Assembly: GCA_965217865.1 (NCBI GenBank)
Contig: CBDCJO010000002.1
Location: 3,520,001-3,584,000 of the forward strand
Direction: 5' to 3'
DNA from: Candidatus Latescibacterota bacterium
GTDB taxonomy: Bacteria; Latescibacterota; UBA2968; SICM01
Length of the DNA stretch: 64,000 nucleotides
Shown here one piece after another: positions 11,296 to 23,481 of this stretch. A model generated the notes under the pieces. The model ran no database searches, was not told the DNA's origin, and worked only from the letters and a program-made list of their open reading frames with translations. The position numbers and the translations under genes were made by a program. Position 1 is the first letter of the stretch; each line of letters begins with the position of its first letter.

Positions 11296-13215
11296 ATGTG
11301 TATGGGACGGACCCCGGAATTGACGCCTGACCGGATGCAAGCGATTCGCGAAGGCCTTGGTCTCACGCAGGAGGAAGCTGGCAGGCTCTTGGGAGGCGGT
11401 CCACGGGCCTTCACCAAGTACGAAGCCGGGAGCCTGAAACCGAGGGCCGCTGCGATCAATCTGCTGCGCGTACTGGAGCTATATCCCGACGCGCTTGGGG
11501 TTCTTCGAGGAGGCGAGCTTCATCCCGCGAGTTCTCGGGTCCCCGCCCCGTTCGAGGTGGAATCCGACGACATTGCTTCGCTTGGGCCTCCTGCTTTTCC
11601 CAATCTCCTGCGACAACTCCTCTCTGCTGAGGCCCGAGAGTACGGCCTTCCCCAAGACGGCATCCGCGTCGCCAGCAACATCCATGTCCCCGATGGAGGG
11701 GAGGACGGGCGAATCTCATGGCGGGGCCGTCCCGAGCGCACTCCATTCCTGCCGTCCCGGCTATGTCAGTTTCAGTTGAAGGTCGGCAAGATAGAGCCCG
11801 CTCGGGCGGGCAACGATGTCCTGACGAACGGAACCGAAGTGAAGGCAATGGTCCGCTCGGTCCTTGAGCGGGGCGGACACTACATCATGCTCTGCGCGCA
11901 GCCCTATAACCAACGGCAGGTAGAGGCGCGGCAGCGTGGCATCTGTGACGCTCTGAGGAAGGCCGGATTGTCGGTTCCGGATCACCTGGTCAGCTTTTGG
12001 GAAGCCGATCAAATCGCCGCGTGGGTGAATACCCACCAATCGGTTGCCCTCTGGGTCAGGGAAGAGGTGGGGCTTGGGACGCTCGGCGGCTTTACTTCGT
12101 GGAACCATTGGAAGGGCCGGAGCGAGCACTCTGTGCGATGGGTAGACGATCCCCGACTGGCCGACCTGCGCCGCACGATTCGGGACAAGGTGACGGAGTC
12201 CGGCGCGGTTCTCCGGGTGGTCGGGTTGTCGGGTATCGGCAAGTCGCGGCTCTGTCTCGAGGCACCGAAGAGAGTCGGCGAAGACGAAATTGTCGGCGCT
12301 CGCTTCGGGACTTCGTCATGTACGCAGTACAGTCTGAAGTGGGTGCGGAAGCGATTCATCCCATCGTCGAAAACTGGCCGTCTCCGGCGGACGCGCCGTC
12401 GTGGTCGTGGACGACTGCGATGCGCGAGGACATGCCATCTTGGCCGGGATAGTGTCGCGCCCGGGCAGCCGCCTATCACTGGTCGCATCGATATGAGATT
12501 CCCTCTCATATCGATGCGACTACCATCAAGATTGACGAGGCCCCGGCGACTGTCATCGAACCCATCGTCGACCATGTCGCTGCAACACTGGATCGTCACC
12601 CCCTTGCACGCCTCTCACGGGGATTCCCGGAAGTTGCAATCCGAATCGCCAACGAATCTGATACGAGGGGACACCTCACCTATCCGGCCGACGACCACCT
12701 TATTGACGAATTCGTCTGCGGTCGTAGGCCCACGGACAGGCGCTGTTGCTCCAATCGGCCAACTGCTCGCGGCGTTCGGACCGGTAAGAGTAGAGCCTGC
12801 GGAAGAGGCATACCTCGGCACGTTTCAAACGGTCGGAACGGAATCCTCAACCGAAGAACATCTCGCGAGGATTGCCGACCTCGGTCGCCAACCCGCCCGC
12901 GATGACCTGTACACAGGAATCCAACGACTCGTCCAACGAGGCGTAGTCAAGCGTAGAGGAGGGCTCGGGACGATTCAACCGCGTCCAATCGCCGTCAGGC
13001 TCGCGGAACGACAGTGGAGGAAATGGGATAAGAGGAAGTGGGACCGGGTGCTATCGGGCGACATCGGCTCGGACCTAAGTGTCTCGGCGGCCCGGCGCCT
13101 CGCTGAACTGAATGCTTCGGAGATAGCCAACAAAGTGGTGGATCACGTCTGCCGGGAGGGCGGGGACTTCGACCGAGTCGATGGGATTGTCCTTCAAAGT
13201 CGTGTGAAGGTGCTT
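11296..13215 (+). pseudogene. MqsA-like HTH + REase-like domain + P-loop ATPase (STAND/Avs-like), multiply frameshifted and truncated
   Basis: IREGLGLTQEEAGRLLGGGPRAFTKYEAG; DGGEDG...FQLK; VLRVVGLSGIGKSRL; the frame is lost between ~12290 and 12760, with a Walker-B-like VVVVDDC in another frame. Confidence 0.7.
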
Positions 13216-13473
13216 TCAGGCGATGATCCACCACCACACGCCCTACAATGTGGAGTACGTCAACATCTTCCCGTTCGACGCAACGACCGTTTCGATTAGC
13301 GGCAAGAACGCGAACCTCGACAGCAACTCTACCATTGCACACGACGCTCAGGACAGGCGGGCTGGGTCGCGCGACCCTGCTCGGTAGCACGAAGCGCAGT
13401 TAAGGTCGACTGTCAATGCGGACAAGAAGGATCAAGGGAGGCTGAGCGATTGGGCCAGGGGATTCACAGGCAA

Positions 13474-14826
13474 ATGGTACGTAGTATTGCGGTCGTCGAA
13501 GATCACGATGCGTTTCAGCATGAGCACCACTTCCGCTCCGCAACCTCCCTTCTCGACCCGTTGTCGGCACCGATGCTGTCGCAATTCCGCCGCGTGGTGC
13601 GCACTCGATACGAGGATGGAAAACCTCGCCTGCTCTGCGCCAAATGCAGCAAGCCGGTCTATGTCTCCCTGTCCGGAGCCGGTCACGCGGATCAGCGAGA
13701 CGGGCGGGACGCCTTCTTCGCCCACCACGCCGGCACGGCGGACGAGTGCGCATGGGGCAGTGGAGGTGAGAATCCCCGAGACATTGACCGCCTGAAATAC
13801 GGCGGCGCACCCGAGGGCGTTCAGCATCAACGGCTCAAGACAATGCTGGCTTCCATGCTGGATGCGGACGCAGCCTTCAGTAACATCGTGGTTGAACAGG
13901 TCATCAGCCGTCCGCCGCAATGGCGAAAGCCGGACGTGATGGCGTCGTTTCTCGATGGTCTAATTGCCTTCGATCTTCAACTGGCAACAACACAGCTCCC
14001 GACGATTGTAGGCCGCGAGACATTCTATGAAAGGAACGGTATCCGGTATGTGTGGGTGACGAGTACGGACGACCCGCACAGCTTGGCACGGCAGACATTC
14101 CAGGACATCTACTGGAACAACGACGCACAGATTTTCAAGGTCGATGCGCATGCCGAAGCCGTCACCCTGGAATGGCGTGAGTTGCACCTATGGGCAATGT
14201 CGGTCGCCCCGAGACTCGATGATAATGGGCTTCGGTCCGTGTGGGAGCGTCGGTTGGTGGCCAGAAGCGAGATCGACTGGGGCACCACATCACGGCGCCC
14301 GCGTTTTTCAGACGCGAATTTCGACACTGCCTTCCGCAAGCTCGTGACCGAACGGTTCGCAGCCCCGAGTCAGCGGCTGATCAACGCGGCGAGTCAGCTG
14401 GAGCATATCGTGAACCGAGAAGCAGGACATGCGTGGGATGAAATCGCGGGCGCGGTAGGCGCACCACGGTGGATCGAAACCGACACAGACAGGGTCTTCA
14501 AGGCGATTGGAGTGCTGGCCTCGGCCGCCACCGGCAAAAAGATGGATGCTTCCAGATACGCACCCGAGGCGCTGACGGCAATGTTCAACCAGTTTCTGGA
14601 GACAACTCCCTGCCGTGGCTGGACGGCTATGCTTCAGCAAGTCGCCACCGCGTACGGCAACGCGGCGCTACTCTCGGCAGCTTCGACACAGGCGAAGATC
14701 ACGCGCAACTTGGGAGAAGACCATCCCGACCTTCAACGCCGGTATGCCGCCATGCTGGACATCATTTTCCCGAAAACCGCCCTCGCCCGTCTTAGCGGTC
14801 CGCCGAGCGAGATTGTCGATGTATAA
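13474..14826 (+). CDS. DUF6035/CoiA-like protein with Zn-binding N-terminus and PD-(D/E)xK-like domain
   Basis: LLCAKCSKPV...FFAHH...C; WRKPDV...IAFDLQLATT...RETFY...YVWV. Confidence 0.65.
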   Translation: MVRSIAVVEDHDAFQHEHHFRSATSLLDPLSAPMLSQFRRVVRTRYEDGKPRLLCAKCSKPVYVSLSGAGHADQRDGRDAFFAHHAGTADECAWGSGGENPRDIDRLKYGGAPEGVQHQRLKTMLASMLDADAAFSNIVVEQVISRPPQWRKPDVMASFLDGLIAFDLQLATTQLPTIVGRETFYERNGIRYVWVTSTDDPHSLARQTFQDIYWNNDAQIFKVDAHAEAVTLEWRELHLWAMSVAPRLDDNGLRSVWERRLVARSEIDWGTTSRRPRFSDANFDTAFRKLVTERFAAPSQRLINAASQLEHIVNREAGHAWDEIAGAVGAPRWIETDTDRVFKAIGVLASAATGKKMDASRYAPEALTAMFNQFLETTPCRGWTAMLQQVATAYGNAALLSAASTQAKITRNLGEDHPDLQRRYAAMLDIIFPKTALARLSGPPSEIVDV

Positions 14827-14841
14827 ATCTCTGTCGGCCAG

Positions 14842-15034
14842 TATCGTGTCCCAAAGATTCCTTCAATAATTCCTCGGATAAAGCGGTCTATAAACCCTGA
14901 ACGGAGCGAAGGATCTCTATGTCCCGAACTATCAGACAGTTGGTGCGATCTTCGCTCGCTGGCTCTCGATCAAAATGACTGCCACCGCTACGTTTTTGGA
15001 GACTTTCTTTGTAAGGAACTTCCGGGATACGACA
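14842..15034. mobile_element. MITE, degenerate copy (see 32040-32231)
   Basis: About 190 bp highly similar to 32040-32231, with terminal IR tatcgtgtccc...gggatacgaca. Confidence 0.88.
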
Positions 15035-15439
15035 CTGATCTTTGGCGGGCGATTTTAACCTGCCTCTTTGAACTGAAGAGCCAAGAAATACCGACCATCA
15101 TCGACAAATCCGGCTTGACAGTTGACTGGAATCTTACCGAAAGAGAAAATTATTTGCACACTTACCACAAAATGGCTTTTCGACCACGGATCAACCGCGC
15201 GTACGATGCTTTGACCAATGACAACAAGTTGCGGGTTTCCTTCATCGTCTGCGAGGAACTCGTCCAAAAAGGTTTAGAGGAAAAACTCAACGTAGCCTTG
15301 GCCCAAGTAGGTTGGTAAACTGATGAAGGCCACCTTTCGACGAAAAGCGAAACGGTGCGGGAGCTATTTTTTCCTCCGAGCACCCAGCACGATGCTTATT
15401 CTGTTGCCACGTGTAACCTCTTTTCGTTAACTACCGAAA

Positions 15440-16030
15440 GTAATCCCCCGGCTTTTCCGGGGAGACTCCCAGAGTTTGACAGTTCCGCGGAAATGAGAGA
15501 GAGCCTTTCCTCTGTGAACCGCCCAAAGTTCATAGAAAGGAAGGCTCTCGATAGACGACTTCCAAAGCCTACGTCACACGGTCTGGGCGTGCAAGTATCA
15601 CGTTGTATGGATTCCGAAATATCGTAGGAAAACGCTCTACGGGGAGCTTCGACGGTACCTGGGAGAAGTGATTCGGGACCTTGCCCGACAGAGAGCGAGT
15701 AGCGTCGAGAAGGGCCACATGAGACCAGATCACGTCCACACGTTGATCTCGATTCCACCCAAGTATGCGGTTTCGCAAGTCGTTGGGTACATCAAAGGGA
15801 AGAGTGCCATCCACATCGCCCGGCACTATCTCGGTCGTCGGTTGAACTTCACCGGACAGCATTTCTGGGCAAGGGGCTATTGGCTCTCAACGGTTGGCAA
15901 AGATGAGGAGGCGATCCGGAAATACATCCGCGATCAGGAGAAAGAGGACCGTCGCCTCGAGCAACTCAACATCTTCAGGTAGAAGCCACCTTCAGGTGGC
16001 GCCAAGGTTTTCAACTGCTTTGAGCGGTTT
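15440..16030 (+). mobile_element. tnpA: IS200-type element; HUH/Y1 TnpA at 15551-15982 with start codon mutated to ATA
   Basis: (I)DDFQSLRHTVWACKYHVVWIPKYRRK...PDHVH...IKGKS...FWARGY...YIRDQ; end hairpins cccccggcttttccgggg and gccaccttcaggtggc. Confidence 0.9.
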
Positions 16031-16033
16031 ACT

Positions 16034-16660
16034 ATGGATGAATCAAGCAGCCGGAATCCAGATAGAGAGATCGTTCAAGGCCTAAGGGAGAGCTCGCATT
16101 ATGCCTTGTCCAGATTTGAAAGGAGATATCGAGATCGGCTATACGACTATGCTTTAGCTAGACTAATGGATAGAGATGAGGCTGCTTCGATTGTCAGCGA
16201 CACACTTTTGCAGATAGTCAACTCTCTCGATAGCTTTGATTTTAAGAACTCTGATAATGACTTCCGAAGCTGGGTTTTCCAGATCTGTAATCGAAAAATT
16301 ATCGATGCAGCAAGACGCAGAAAGCGAGAGCATGGGCAAGCCACCCTGATCAGTCTTGATCTGGAGACTGAGGATGAAAAAGGAGAATCCCATAATCCTG
16401 TCCAATTAGAAGTTGATCGTCAGATAACAGAGGAATACTATCGTGAGTCCGTTGAAAATTCAGATACTCTCAAGAAAGAGACAAAGCAGTTTATTCAGAG
16501 CCTAAACCCGAAGGATAGAATAATCCTTTCTTCATGCTTGGATGAAGTTCCTCACAAGGAAGTTGCTGAATATGTTGAGATGACACCCAACAATGTCAAA
16601 GTACGTTTCCACCGAATCAAAGAACGCTTTATTCAGCGCTTACATCAAAAGGAGGCCTGA
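16034..16660 (+). CDS. ECF-type sigma-70 factor
   Basis: Region 2 (RYRDRLYDYA...FRSWVFQICNRKIID) and region 4 (SLNPKDRIIL...HKEVAEYVEMTPNNVKVRFHR). Confidence 0.9.
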   Translation: MDESSSRNPDREIVQGLRESSHYALSRFERRYRDRLYDYALARLMDRDEAASIVSDTLLQIVNSLDSFDFKNSDNDFRSWVFQICNRKIIDAARRRKREHGQATLISLDLETEDEKGESHNPVQLEVDRQITEEYYRESVENSDTLKKETKQFIQSLNPKDRIILSSCLDEVPHKEVAEYVEMTPNNVKVRFHRIKERFIQRLHQKEA

Positions 16661-16663
16661 GCA

Positions 16664-17284
16664 ATGGATGAAAAGAAAATCAATATAGATGAATTTCTCA
16701 GATCTATAAACTCTGAGCTTCCTGTTGATGAGGATTACTTGGACTTCTTCATGTCTCGTGAGCCCAAAGAGAAAATGCCAGAACATCATGTTGAGAAACT
16801 ATCCAGTGATCTGAGAGAATCTCAAGAGAAACGTCATAGACTAAACCAAAGGATGTCATTTCCTGAAAAGTTAGTATCACTTGGAGAATACCTGCAGCTC
16901 CTGAAGGAGAAACTCGACCTGGAAAGAAAGGGAAAGGCTCTCGCGTCTTTCCTAGGTGTTGAATCTGATTTGATTCCAAAGTTAGAGACAAATACGGTCT
17001 CAATAGTGTCAATACCATTGCGTGAATTATATTCCATGGGTCGTAGCATAGGACTGAATACTGGCACCTACCTTGAACTTCTTAGGAAGTCACATAGGCT
17101 TCACAACATCGGACCTAGATATAAAGGAGCTGCCAGGTATGATTCTAGGGAGGGAACCAAAGGGAAGGAGCAATCAATGAAAATCGCCTATGAGGAGCTG
17201 CTTCTCAAAGGTAAAGCAGAAGAAAGAGATAATGATCTGGAATCGCATCTGCACGCTCTGAGAGAGATGTTGGAAAAGAGCTAA
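16664..17284 (+). CDS. Hypothetical cytoplasmic protein with XRE-like HTH; putative anti-sigma factor
   Basis: 3 bp after the sigma stop, GGAGG RBS; SLGEYLQLLKE...ALASFLGVESDLIPKLE; no transmembrane segment. Confidence 0.6.
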   Translation: MDEKKINIDEFLRSINSELPVDEDYLDFFMSREPKEKMPEHHVEKLSSDLRESQEKRHRLNQRMSFPEKLVSLGEYLQLLKEKLDLERKGKALASFLGVESDLIPKLETNTVSIVSIPLRELYSMGRSIGLNTGTYLELLRKSHRLHNIGPRYKGAARYDSREGTKGKEQSMKIAYEELLLKGKAEERDNDLESHLHALREMLEKS

Positions 17285-17775
17285 TGGAAGAACTCCCAAG
17301 GAAAAGAACAGGCTACTGCAGGATGGCAGCGCGGAGTCTGCTTTCGAGATACAGCAAAGGAGCAGGTGATATCAGACCGCCAATTCCTGTCTGTGATATA
17401 GCTAAGTTTAATGGCTATAAGGTGGTGCTCCTTGAAACACTGACGGACAAACACTCGGCCATTGTGGACTTGCATGAGAAACTTATTGGAGTGAATAAGA
17501 AGCATCACTCACACAGGAGAAGGTTCTCCATAGGCCACGAACTCGGCCACATCTATCTTGAACATCCTTCGGAAGACGAGCAATCTGAAGAGGAAGTGAA
17601 GTATTTTAACCTCGAAGCGAACGAATTCGCCGGTGAGCTACTTGTACCTCTACATTATCTGAAACTCGAATTAAAGCAATGCAAGAATATGGATCAGCTT
17701 GCGAATCATTTCAACGTGAGTCCCGAAGTGGTATTCAGGAGGATCTCTTCCCAAGGGCTGTTGTCATACATATAG
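17284..17775 (+). CDS. ImmA/IrrE-family Zn metallopeptidase
   Basis: RRRFSIGHELGH (HExxH)...EANEFAGELLVP...LANHFNVS; TAATG translational coupling. Confidence 0.92.
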   Translation: MEELPRKRTGYCRMAARSLLSRYSKGAGDIRPPIPVCDIAKFNGYKVVLLETLTDKHSAIVDLHEKLIGVNKKHHSHRRRFSIGHELGHIYLEHPSEDEQSEEEVKYFNLEANEFAGELLVPLHYLKLELKQCKNMDQLANHFNVSPEVVFRRISSQGLLSYI

Positions 17776-17804
17776 TCTTGTAAATTAGTTAGTTAATGGG
17801 ATAA

Positions 17805-17839
17805 GGCCGCGTTCTCTCGGGAGCGCGGCCGTTCCTTTT
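17805..17839 (+). terminator. Putative intrinsic terminator
   Basis: GGCCGCGTTC/GAGCGCGGCC stem followed by gttcctttt. Confidence 0.55.
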
Positions 17840-18330
17840 GTCCGGGGTGTAACCCGGTTTCGTTTATATAAGTATAAGGTTCGGAAACCGCCGCGACAAG
17901 AACAACACCATGCTGGCCGAAATTGCATCCGGAAGATTTCCGGCAAAAGTGGATAAGGTAGACAGCGTCACTTCCGCGCTGCCCTCATTTCTTCATCTGC
18001 GCGGCGACTCCCGAAGGCAGGCTGAGCCTTCGCTAAAGGACATCCATCGTCCGTTTCCGGGTTCCGCTCTCGCAATCGATTAACTGAATGTCGGGACGGA
18101 TCCAGCAATAGAGCTTCGAAAGGGCGGCCGCGGTTCGTACGGCCGAGGGGTACTGCCACTATACGGAGATCATGCCGGACGAGCCGGGGTTCAGGCCGGA
18201 TTTCGTGGTGGCCGGCAGCACGGAGCGCGGGAATTCACCGCCGCCTCGGCGAACATCGGATCGCTATGATGCGCAATAGGATCGAGTTGTTCGAATTCCC
18301 CTTAACTTTCCACAACCGGAGAAACAACCT

Positions 18331-18579
18331 ATGAATGGTGACACGCAAATTATCGTGAGTGGTCGTGAGTACAAGGTCTCTGGCAATGTTGTGACCTACG
18401 AGCAGGTCGTGAAGATCTGGAACGAGCTCCATGATGCAGAGAACAAGCACATCATCGGCACGCCCGGCATCGACTACGAAGACAGCCTGAAAGGCGAGGA
18501 CGGTGTCCTCCTGCCGGGCAAGGACGTTGAAGTCAAGGACGGCACGAGCTTCTCGGTAGACCCCGAGCATGTCTCGTGA
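18331..18579 (+). CDS. Multi-ubiquitin-type (beta-grasp) ubiquitin-like protein
   Basis: QIIVSGRE...VTYEQVV...G.LLPGKDVEVKDGTSFSV pattern; GGAG RBS; GTGA overlap with the E1 gene. Confidence 0.75.
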   Translation: MNGDTQIIVSGREYKVSGNVVTYEQVVKIWNELHDAENKHIIGTPGIDYEDSLKGEDGVLLPGKDVEVKDGTSFSVDPEHVS

Positions 18580-19757
18580 GGGACCGTCTCTTCACGTTCG
18601 CTGAGCAGGCCGGGTTTGCCGTCAGGGTCGATTCCGACGTCGTCCTGGCCGTCCGGGTTCCTTGTCTGCTTGCAGACGGGGTTGTTGGCACTTGTACCAT
18701 TGAGAAGTCCTACGACCCTATGAACGGGAAACCGAATGACCGGATAGGTGGCGCAGTCCATGCGGTGCGGATCACCGCTGACGAAGAGCACGACGGGCGC
18801 GTGTACCACGCGGACGGGAACCCGATTGAGAGCTACATCGCCGGCGACGGCAAGACCTGGTCGAACATCTCCATCCGGAAAGGTAGCCAAAACAGCCCGG
18901 AGGAGGACGTGTCGGCGAGCGACTTGATCCACCGCTATGCGAAGCAGATCGTCGGGGCCGTGTCGGCGGACGGCTACTCCGAAACCGCTTCTCTCGGGAG
19001 GCGGGGTCCGTTCAAGATCCCGAACACTTTCGAGGCACGAGCGGCGATAGGCTCGGTTCAGGATCGCATCCGTGATCAGAGCATTGCGATCATCGGCTTG
19101 GGCGGAACGGGCGCCTACGTCCTAGACCTTATTGCGAAGACGCCAGTGGCGGAAATCCATCTTTTGGATTCCGACGACGTTGACTGGCACAACTTCATGC
19201 GCTCACCGGGCGCACCTACTGCCGAGGAGATTGAGTCGCGTCCCAAGGGGCGCCTGCGCAAAGTGGACTACTACCATTCCAAGTATGCCTCCCTCCGGGA
19301 AGGCATCCACCCGCACGCTGTTCGAGTGGACAGCCCGTCCATATTCGCCGAGTTTCTGTCGGCGCATCCCGTCGACTATGTCTTCGTGTGTATCGACCAA
19401 CTGACCGACGGCGATTCGCCGCGTCAGAACGTCGTCTACTGCGCGCTCTCAGCGGCGGAGGTCCCGTTCATAGACTCGGGTGTGAGCATTACGCTGGAAG
19501 ACCACGCCATCAGAGGGGCTGTGACGACGAGCGCCTATGCCGCAGGCTCTCGCGCGTGGAAGGATGCCATTCCGAATGCCAGAGTCGAGGGCAATGTCCC
19601 CGGCTACCGCAACGTCCAGCTGCCGGAAGTGAACGCGTTGGCGGCGTCGCTTGCCGTGATGGAGTGGCGGCGTCGCACGGAACAGTATGTTTCGGGGTCG
19701 GCTTCGTTCCTCCACAAGTTCCGGCTCGAGACGCCGTGCATTGTCACAGCAGACTGA
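18576..19757 (+). CDS. ThiF/E1-like adenylyltransferase with N-terminal E2-like (DUF6791-like) domain
   Basis: IAIIGLGGTGAYVLD, HLLDSD...HNFMRSPG, DYVFVCID, PFIDSG, NVQLPEVNALAASLAV. Confidence 0.88.
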   Translation: MRDRLFTFAEQAGFAVRVDSDVVLAVRVPCLLADGVVGTCTIEKSYDPMNGKPNDRIGGAVHAVRITADEEHDGRVYHADGNPIESYIAGDGKTWSNISIRKGSQNSPEEDVSASDLIHRYAKQIVGAVSADGYSETASLGRRGPFKIPNTFEARAAIGSVQDRIRDQSIAIIGLGGTGAYVLDLIAKTPVAEIHLLDSDDVDWHNFMRSPGAPTAEEIESRPKGRLRKVDYYHSKYASLREGIHPHAVRVDSPSIFAEFLSAHPVDYVFVCIDQLTDGDSPRQNVVYCALSAAEVPFIDSGVSITLEDHAIRGAVTTSAYAAGSRAWKDAIPNARVEGNVPGYRNVQLPEVNALAASLAVMEWRRRTEQYVSGSASFLHKFRLETPCIVTAD

Positions 19758-19766
19758 CTCGCAGGA

Positions 19767-20192
19767 ATGACGCCCGTGAAACTCCGCCCCGTCTTCGTAG
19801 ACGTATTGCCCGATTTTGACGCAATCAAAGCCGGTGAGCTCTGGATTAGCCACAAGTACCGGACTGTCAACCTGCGCTGCCCCTGCGGTTGCGGCGATCT
19901 GACAGTGCTGTCTCTCCACCCAAGCCGCTGGCACGTTCATTTCGATGGCAAGTCGGCCTCTCTGGACGGTCCTAGGGGTGGGTCCGTGTGGGCCAATTCC
20001 GGCTGCGGCAGCCACTACTTCATAAGGAACAACGCCGTCATTTGGGCGCGTAGAATCGATCCAGGCCGTCATTCGGAGTATGCCCAAGTCGAACGGACGC
20101 GGCTGATTGTGTCTCAACGGAGCCGTCTGGCTTGGCGCTCCTGGCTCAAAGGTGTTTTCCGCTGTCTGTCGCTAGGGAGTTGGCGTAAGTAG
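19767..20192 (+). CDS. DUF6527-family Cys/His metal-binding protein
   Basis: GELWISHKY...LRCPCGCG...W...SVW...GCGSHYFIRN. Confidence 0.8.
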   Translation: MTPVKLRPVFVDVLPDFDAIKAGELWISHKYRTVNLRCPCGCGDLTVLSLHPSRWHVHFDGKSASLDGPRGGSVWANSGCGSHYFIRNNAVIWARRIDPGRHSEYAQVERTRLIVSQRSRLAWRSWLKGVFRCLSLGSWRK

Positions 20193-20281
20193 AGCGCCGC
20201 ATTTCTTCTGGGTTGACCAGACGCGTGACCCGCGAGTGTGTGCTTGATTGCGTTCTAATCGGTACGTACATTGGGGTGATA

Positions 20282-20580
20282 TGACCCGGGAAAAGTGAAC
20301 AGTGGTTTAAGCCGCTTTCTGCAGCGATAGGCGTTCAAAAAGGGCCGGGGACACATAGTCCAGGTAAGCGTGCAGCCGCTGATTGTTGTAAAACATTTCG
20401 ATGTACTCGAAGAGTTCGCGCTCTGCATGATCGAGGTCGATCAAGTCGGCGTGATACAGCCATTCGGTCTTCAAGGTTTTGAAGAATGACTCGGAGACGG
20501 CATTGTCCCAGCAATCGGCCTTCTTGCTCATGCTTTGAACAAACTGATGCGCGTCGACGGCCTTTCGGAAGCCATCGCTA
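20282..20580 (-). pseudogene. IS3-family transposase C-terminus plus right end
   Basis: QSMSKKADCWDNAVSESFFKTLKTE...YIEMFYNNQRLHAYLDYVSP. Confidence 0.9.
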
Positions 20581-23394: not shown

Positions 23395-23481
23395 TTAGTA
23401 GAAAACACTTGAAATGCCCCAGTTTTCAGGACCGGACCCATCGGGTCCGGTTTCCAGTGAATACGTCTGGAGGACGCTTCC
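23395..23481. repeat. IS1380 left-end remnant joined to an inverted partial copy of the 450-bp element
   Basis: ttagtagaaaa...ttgaaatgccccagttttcagg matches 26166 and 51618; gaccggacccatcgggtccgg.ttcc.gtgaatac is the reverse complement of ~9420-9455. Confidence 0.8.

Follow-up and report, generated by a model that had tools for sequence, protein, structure and literature searches.

A putative portable ECF sigma factor cassette precedes a Type II Bub operon in a Latescibacterota genome

What connects a three-gene regulatory cluster to the ubiquitin-like conjugation operon that stands behind it? The question is raised by a stretch of 64,000 nucleotides (nt) from the genome of a Candidatus Latescibacterota bacterium (assembly GCA_965217865.1, contig CBDCJO010000002.1, positions 3,520,001 to 3,584,000; hereafter the window, in whose numbering positions are given). 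Here, genes for an extracytoplasmic function (ECF) sigma factor, a partner protein that we call X and an ImmA/IrrE-family peptidase, together the triad, are followed by a bacterial ubiquitination operon of the Bub kind. We lean towards reading the triad as a portable switch: X, a predicted anti-sigma factor, would be cut by the peptidase, and the freed sigma factor would transcribe from a motif located both before its own gene and before exchangeable cargo genes. The regulator is uncharacterised and portable, and it is probably activating.

One pointer in this direction is a bipartite motif, TGTNAC-N7-CGTT, first spotted by eye when comparing the flanks of seven triad loci and then tested on 34 loci, six of which were discovery loci. 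It lies upstream of the sigma gene in 34/34 loci and behind the peptidase gene in 24/34, never on the opposite strand; among the held-out loci, most of which are relatives and not independent events, it was found upstream in 28/28 and downstream in 18/28, compared with 150 of 6800 random windows. The distance between the halves is strikingly fixed, with 58 matches at a spacer of 7 nt and a single match at all other spacers from 3 to 22 nt taken together. In homologous loci, ∼24 to 111 nt lie between the beginning of the motif and the presumed start of sigma, except for one locus at 0, and some of these starts are approximate; a triad from another phylum (L224) has both sites. The window contains exactly two copies, at 15412 and 17848. 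Across the 6.4-Mb genome there are only four strong sites, all of them within the cassette or its partial copies, and the second window copy has the top position weight matrix (PWM) score of the genome (29.9); two shuffled 2-Mb controls contained no site of such strength. A motif specific to the cassette is thus directed from the triad towards the Bub operon, in favour of the link between the two that the preliminary description of this locus, made from sequence alone, had suggested.

The motif would be the promoter of the sigma factor, with CGTT as the −10 element and a start site ∼10 nt later. Downstream of it follows an AT-rich run with a T-A step ∼9 to 10 nt past CGTT, while nothing is conserved upstream. 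A weak TAG located 16 to 17 nt past the first box might serve as the −10 element instead. In ECF promoters, the −35 and −10 elements are usually separated by 16 to 17 nt; at spacers of 14 to 22 nt we found no match, and the two boxes stand about one helical turn closer than usual. The halves themselves resemble −35 boxes (TGTCAC/TGTAAC) and −10 boxes (CGTC/TCGT) published for ECF sigma factors, as given in the covered part of PMC7826278. At one further locus (L130:8934), a third good motif copy lies ∼1.7 kb behind the peptidase gene, with a long open reading frame (ORF) in between, before a 518-aa ORF.

The preliminary description had made its reading depend on homologous triads occurring with ubiquitin-like protein (Ubl) or defence genes, and this they do. 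Among seven mobile-type loci (five of the 31 genomic loci plus L142 and L224), triads precede a Type II Bub operon in L093, beside an integrase and RadC, and in L123; a Type I Bub operon in L122; a CBASS operon with NucC, CD-NTase and E2 in L091; and 6A-MBL, above the NCBIfam cut-offs, in L224. L142 encodes a UG36 reverse transcriptase ∼2.3 kb downstream of the triad, and the triad of L092 is followed by DUF2188 and unknown genes. With Bub in 3/7, CBASS in 1/7 and 6A-MBL in 1/7 of these loci, the association of the triad with defence is not accidental at the level of the family. Conjugation enzymes of the E1 or E2 type are encoded in five of the seven cargos, and the pairing of triad and Bub recurs in three genomes besides the window. 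Moreover, two pairs of near-identical triads, L091/L092 (X 87% identical) and L142/L224, carry different cargo, from which we conclude that cargo swapping is normal. In L091 (10601-13688), a 4-HFC-P synthase-like gene directly follows the second motif, and the CBASS genes come after it.

The gene order is conserved as well. In the fetched genomic loci, sigma lies upstream of X in 31/31 and the peptidase downstream in 30/31, and three further full triads were present among 80 metagenome loci, and one more was found in another phylum (L224). A diverged variant (L147:13-1994) has sigma and X on one strand and a convergent peptidase gene. The exhaustive homologue search yielded 30 X proteins, including the one in the window; word-index searches returned two each for X and sigma and four for profile A1. 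In successively narrower, overlapping groups of genomes around G168, G257 and G541, members of the X profile occurred in 13/401 (11 full-length, the two HTH-only matches being dropped), 12/301 and 34/201 genomes, HTH denoting the helix-turn-helix part of the protein. In the phylum of G171, 2/251 genomes matched, with one true member. G1264 was rejected as a member, as it encodes an MqsA-like HTH protein beside a peptidase of the IrrE family, without a sigma gene. No full-length X was found in 40 relatives searched, in 167 other genomes of the window's phylum, which gave HTH-part matches only, in 251 genomes of the phylum of G169, in five genomes with Bub homologues, on plasmids (query P0011), or among 80 viral loci fetched through IrrE. 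Trees built for sigma, X and IrrE from a subset of the loci, with 20 rows apiece, set the window proteins on a long branch outside both supported groups and point to no donor. In the literature covered, which took in part of Lau et al. and part of the ECF supplement, there was no account of the triad mechanism or the motif.

Within the window, all six ORFs lie on the plus strand between 16034 and 20192 and are free of internal stops (Table 1). Sigma and X are separated by 3 nt, the stop of X and the start of IrrE overlap by 1 nt, and the Ubl and E1 genes overlap by 4 nt. The preliminary description had listed six apparently intact, co-oriented genes for a sigma factor, an XRE-like protein, an HExxH peptidase, a Ubl, an E1 fusion and a DUF6527 protein, all of which is borne out by the ORF scan, Pfam, protein folds and catalytic residues; its ∼550-bp spacer between IrrE and bubA measures 555 nt. 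What it had not picked up are the terminator-like hairpin behind the triad, the two motif copies, the IS200 insertion before sigma and a step in base composition, from a GC content of 0.42 to 0.46 (third codon positions, 0.41 to 0.51) in the triad to 0.56 to 0.62 (0.67 to 0.76) in the rest. The ORFs of the spacer had no Pfam match, and the one at 17910-18083 resembled nothing other than copies within this genome. Repeats in the region occur at chance level only.

Table 1. Features of the triad, spacer and Bub operon in window coordinates (E, E value)
Feature	Position	Strand	Basis
Motif copy 1, TGTAAC-N7-CGTT; predicted promoter for triad autoregulation	15412..15428	+	Exact match, PWM 25.0
IS200-family element with TnpA reading frame; right end apparently truncated, ends approximate	15440..16029	+	Pfam Y1_Tnp E 4.8e-24; end hairpins
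ECF-type sigma factor, 208 aa	16034..16660	+	Pfam Sigma70_r2 E 6.5e-9, r4_2 E 1e-7; NCBIfam
Partner protein X, 206 aa; predicted anti-sigma factor and protease substrate	16664..17284	+	30 homologues including itself, alignments, AF2 model
ImmA/IrrE-family HExxH metallopeptidase, 163 aa	17284..17775	+	Peptidase_M78 E 1.7e-17
Intrinsic-terminator-like hairpin closing the triad	17805..17840	+	11-pair stem and T-rich tail; -26.3 kcal/mol for 17795-17845
Motif copy 2, TGTAAC-N7-CGTT; predicted cargo promoter towards Bub	17848..17864	+	Exact match, PWM 29.9
57-codon ORF, possibly remnant of an earlier cargo	17910..18083	+	ORF scan; begins 62 nt past motif copy 2
Beheaded small leader ORF of the Bub module	18118..18279	+	Similarity to L001, L006, L017, L031 begins at 18117-18118
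BubA, single beta-grasp Ubl, C-terminal Ser	18331..18579	+	Multi_ubiq E 5.7e-7
BubBD, E2-E1 fusion	18576..19757	+	ThiF E 3.8e-13; alignment with canonical Type II proteins
BubE (DUF6527), Ser-His peptidase family	19767..20192	+	Pfam E 2.3e-15

The sigma factor possesses regions 2 and 4 only, as do ECF (group 4) sigma factors, according to Pfam, NCBIfam, an AlphaFold2 (AF2) model and Foldseek, whose best matches were ECF sigmas such as SigW, SigH, AlgU and RpoE. Between the two regions, its model (mean confidence score pLDDT, 77.7) shows a linker that is long and acidic as well as an extra helix, and the protein bears a weak similarity to the CASP-sigma model (E 2.6e-9, 37 bits; cut-off, 100). 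X is composed of a ∼65-aa N-terminal helical extension, a degenerate XRE-type HTH (residues 70 to 142, by fold and by family profile), a flexible loop and two C-terminal helices. In its AF2 model (pLDDT 86.6), residues 158 to 161 fall below 50, and Arg158, within this disordered loop, is invariant in 46/46 alignment rows. X itself had no match in Pfam or to PADLOC capH, and Foldseek returned nothing at an E value of 0.001 or better; direct comparison of its HTH with HigA, the N-terminal domain of CapH, DdrO and ImmR gave VIA Z values of 4.9 to 6.8. In the peptidase, HExxH occupies residues 85 to 89, and H85, E86, H89 and E111 are invariant in 14/14 sequences. It matches PADLOC capP with an E value of 1.4e-18, covering only positions 6 to 150 of the 242 in the model.

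For the mechanism, we infer each of the following steps. X would sequester the sigma factor via its N-terminal helices; a stress or DNA damage signal, relayed by an activator, would switch on the peptidase; this would cleave X within its flexible loop, at Arg158 or close by; and the freed sigma factor would transcribe its own triad and the cargo from TGTNAC-N7-CGTT. The loop is a plausible cut site, given the invariant Arg158 and the cleavage of CapH by CapP before Arg83, as described in the part of Lau et al. (10.1101/2022.04.27.489752) covered here. The general logic of a protease, an anti-sigma factor and an ECF sigma factor finds support in the Csx29-Csx30-CASP-sigma proteins of type III CRISPR, for which it is established (PMC10028731, as far as covered).

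Turning to the cargo of the window, we find an ordinary Type II Bub operon by its sequence, that is, a new member of a known family and not the minimal ubiquitin-like operon of the preliminary description. It has the full Type II complement of Ubl, E2-E1 fusion and DUF6527 protein, without JAB; the type is defined by BubA, BubBD and BubE, with Tyr in the E1, Ser in the E2 and a Ser-His peptidase, in the covered part of Ye et al. (PMC11601596). Y344 (crossover-loop Tyr) and R209 (adenylation) of BubBD line up with the E. coli motifs around Y342 and R219. On the E2 side, where residues are assigned by alignment, S99 is shared by 35/37 close homologues (the other two have no N-terminal part), H62 is conserved, and the Lys position varies between Arg and Lys among homologues. 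This E2-like part is so diverged that it had no Pfam DUF6791 match, and comparison of BubBD with PRK06153 models gave an E value of 5.7e-54, below their cut-off. BubE contains C38, C40, C42 and C80 of a C4 zinc finger plus the S73 and H83 dyad, spaced as in Citrobacter BubE, and the C-terminal end of BubA is identical in all 30 close homologues matched by pattern. The terminal Ser was considered as a novelty and rejected as such, since the Type II BubA of E. coli has the same last residue (Table S2 in the portion of PMC11601596 covered). The same genome has a second canonical-looking Type II Bub operon (C1:579642-577761, L045), the E1 part of which is 36% identical and the Ubl of which also ends in Ser.

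Most relatives of this operon come with regulators of their own. A genome scan revealed 39 homologous Bub loci, 37 of them at 55 to 90% identity and spread over many phyla, which indicates that this Bub subfamily moves horizontally. An HExxH ORF lies divergently upstream of Bub in 25/39 loci, a count made after dropping a false motif match (L019) and re-tagging L009; in three more it is co-oriented, and one is doubtful. Where such neighbours were tested with Pfam, M78 was present in 11/11 and an HTH in 10/10. A sigma-70-like site occurs within 450 nt of bubA in 17/34 loci, none being present in the window spacer, and a small leader ORF of ∼57 aa without Pfam match precedes bubA in 4/39 (L001:7528-7701, L006, L017 and L031). 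RNA run X21 contained diverged Bub pieces only. L001, the closest relative (94%), is similar from 18118 onwards, with a sharp edge within the opening codons of the leader ORF, which L001 holds in full (57 aa) with its start codon. Position 18118 corresponds to ∼95 nt downstream of the sigma-70-like promoter of L001, so the Bub module of the window has lost its native regulators, a divergent HTH/IrrE pair, and this promoter, and motif 2 is the only promoter candidate that we found for it. Contigs from 4/4 runs of two studies, one of which is possibly the source of the window, bridge the junction at 18117, which is therefore not an assembly artefact. Many other contigs diverge at 18116-18123.

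Several observations weigh against a working switch of this kind. Judged by its sequence, the pairing in the window joins two modules of different origin in a graft of recent date, and no sigma/X triad was seen near any of the 39 Bub homologue loci; the caveat of the preliminary description, that the linkage could be accidental, thus fails for the family, in which defence cargo recurs; in this window, the graft weakens its reading. Between motif 2 and bubA lie 483 nt of debris, made up of the 57-codon orphan ORF and the beheaded leader. IS200 separates motif 1, now 622 nt from the sigma start, from that gene and begins close to where transcription is predicted to start, which may have broken autoregulation; the insertion probably breaks or weakens the positive feedback loop, and the switch may be impaired in this strain. 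More generally, a single group inherited vertically within one order accounts for 26 of the 31 genomic loci; these 26 are hence not independent, and their triads precede DUF3276, thioredoxin, Bax1-I, HSP20 or RmuC genes, not defence genes. These neighbours suggest a role in general stress. A spacer of 7 nt is at odds with the 16 to 17 nt that sigma region 4 would be expected to need on RNA polymerase, which makes the reader of the motif uncertain; loci with an identical upstream hexamer differ strongly in their region-4 recognition helix, and the related triad L147 has no exact motif copy. X has a real XRE fold and could be a DNA-binding repressor, and profile and fold searches with it gave HTH proteins only, no anti-sigma factor. 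At 163 aa, the peptidase lacks the C-terminal GAF domain of CapP. It shares the M78/HExxH part of CapP, and triggering by single-stranded DNA (ssDNA) cannot be assumed for a protein this short. Finally, protection against phage by Bub is not demonstrated in the parts of PMC11601596 and PMC13373217 covered here. In three loci of the vertical group (L094, L096 and L099), motif 2 stands directly before a gene for a small DUF3276/PurA-like protein, just behind IrrE; for the GAF-less peptidase, this protein is a candidate partner or sensor that binds nucleic acids.

The state of the window copy leads to the first of three alternatives, namely, that this copy is a dead by-product of rearrangement, with the triad silenced by IS200 and Bub either promoterless or read by chance. 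Compatible with a switch at the family level, it strikes us as possible but rather doubtful. The genome is rich in insertion sequences (IS) and has broken partial copies of the block: two duplicates, at C2:181709-185576 and C2:2457639-2460209 (99.7% and 97.5 to 99%), keep IrrE and motif 2 without sigma, one beginning inside X and the other also being without window positions 17948-18456 and abutting a many-copy IS, and a 334-nt fragment lies at C2:525824-526157. The IS200 just past motif 1, from which other copies of the element diverge near 15440-15445 and at 16029, the debris in the spacer and the GC mismatch between the halves fit this picture as well. A low-depth contig joining 15459 to 16031 was not used as an IS-free allele, as it may be the right-end hairpin of the IS laid on its left-end hairpin. 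Against a dead copy, the six ORFs are all intact and have kept their catalytic residues, motif 2 ranks as the best site of the genome with no terminator between it and bubA in a consensus scan, the triad-Bub pairing recurs in other genomes, and X5, a strain that differs slightly (five other letters in 684), has the junction too.

The second alternative, which we consider unlikely, takes X for a CapH-like DNA-binding repressor and the motif, or part of it, for an operator overlapping a sigma-dependent promoter; cleavage by the peptidase would derepress, and sigma would merely amplify. X does share its XRE fold with CapH, DdrO and ImmR, and the invariant Arg ahead of its C-terminal helices with CapH. 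In addition, CapS also binds two sites, one within its cassette and one before the cargo (PMC13373217). Lau et al. (10.1101/2022.04.27.489752), in the part covered, even mention 24 CBASS systems in which genes beside one of the sigma-70 family are named capH and capP, without further study. A repressor, however, sits poorly with a motif that is non-palindromic and always on the coding strand, and with an exact motif facing a poorly conserved recognition helix of X. Nor does the window X match capH in the searches above, and its 65-aa extension is absent from CapH (107 aa).

It is improbable that X is a required co-factor, with sigma region 2 reading CGTT, X or an X-repositioned region 4 reading TGTNAC at about −26 to −21, and the peptidase ending or remodelling the response: X-assisted reading would explain the spacer of exactly 7 nt, one helical turn short, and accords with the absence of any conserved element further upstream, the variable region-4 helix and the constant coupling of X to sigma, yet cleavages by ImmA, IrrE and CapP, as far as known, activate, and conservation is likewise absent from the HTH of X. 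Sigma-54 promoters, which the spacing brought to mind, are recognised by GG/GC pairs; these are absent from the motif, and we rejected this reading.

At 14837-15041, 20274-20578 and 23395-23481 of the window lie short repeats and the remnant of an IS3-type integrase, which occur in many copies across this very IS-rich genome. Further upstream, 11296-13299 encodes an MqsA-like HTH-NTPase fusion similar to PD-Lambda-4_A (E 6.8e-26), apparently frameshifted and with a 91% copy at C2:584088, followed at 13450-14826 by an intact-looking gene for a 458-aa DUF7830/DUF6035/CoiA-like nuclease.

Should the triad be the activating switch that we favour, it would add a sigma-based alternative to the three published Bub/CBASS regulators, CapW, CapH+CapP as well as CapK+CapS, all of which are repressors. 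More tentatively, it might represent a fourth family of ‘Cap’ regulators, acting by activation, in which an IrrE-type protease frees a private ECF sigma factor that reads a 7-bp-spaced promoter; the cassette would plug in before Bub I/II, E2-bearing CBASS or 6A-MBL and would here have replaced a CapH/CapP-type pair. With the target motif and a candidate cut site precisely predicted, the proposal is directly testable using a reporter and three small proteins. If true, the 7-bp-spaced bipartite promoter would be unusual for any factor of the sigma-70 family and a possible orthogonal part; the cargo behind the motif could help to identify genes for stress or defence, and the inducing signal might show when Bub operons are needed.

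How does the locus compare with known systems? Its Bub half is like that of E. coli ZDHYS365 (PMC11601596, in the part covered) in the three-gene order BubA-BubBD-BubE, the Ser-ended Ubl, the E2 Ser, the adenylation Arg, the crossover Tyr and the C4 zinc site and Ser-His dyad of BubE; it differs in that the Ubl is a single domain and the E2 is shortened and too diverged for Pfam DUF6791. Regulation of Bub by CapH+CapP (168/544), CapW (43/544) or CapK+CapS (59/544, PMC13373217) has been described, whereas the window has a co-oriented sigma triad. As in CapH+CapP, in DdrO/IrrE and in ImmR/ImmA (Lau et al., 10.1101/2022.04.27.489752, as far as covered), an XRE-fold protein and an HExxH M78 peptidase lie beside a defence operon, and X likewise has an invariant Arg, a candidate P1′ residue. 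In contrast with CapH+CapP, the genes in the window and in the mobile-type relatives are co-oriented and have no divergent shared promoter, the HTH protein is twice as long owing to its N-terminal extension, and the peptidase has no GAF domain; the dedicated ECF sigma factor and the non-palindromic, strand-fixed motif suggest activation rather than derepression. The covered part of Casas-Pastor et al. (PMC7826278) describes promoters of ECF41, ECF120 and ECF231, which share their −35/−10 words with the motif, the spacer of the latter being 7 nt instead; that part of their supplement which was covered showed no IrrE, DUF955 or XRE context. No cas genes were present among the annotated triad neighbours, and the triad is thus not of the type III CRISPR kind with CHAT or Lon proteases. 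Nonetheless, a parallel in logic comes from there: as in Csx29/Csx30/CASP-sigma (PMC10028731) and CalpL/CalpT/CalpS, in the parts of these accounts covered, a protease, a soluble anti-sigma factor and an ECF sigma factor would act together in defence, with sigma motifs inside their own locus, while the window cassette differs by its zinc metallopeptidase in place of a caspase-like or Lon protease, its XRE-fold partner and its exchangeable cargo.

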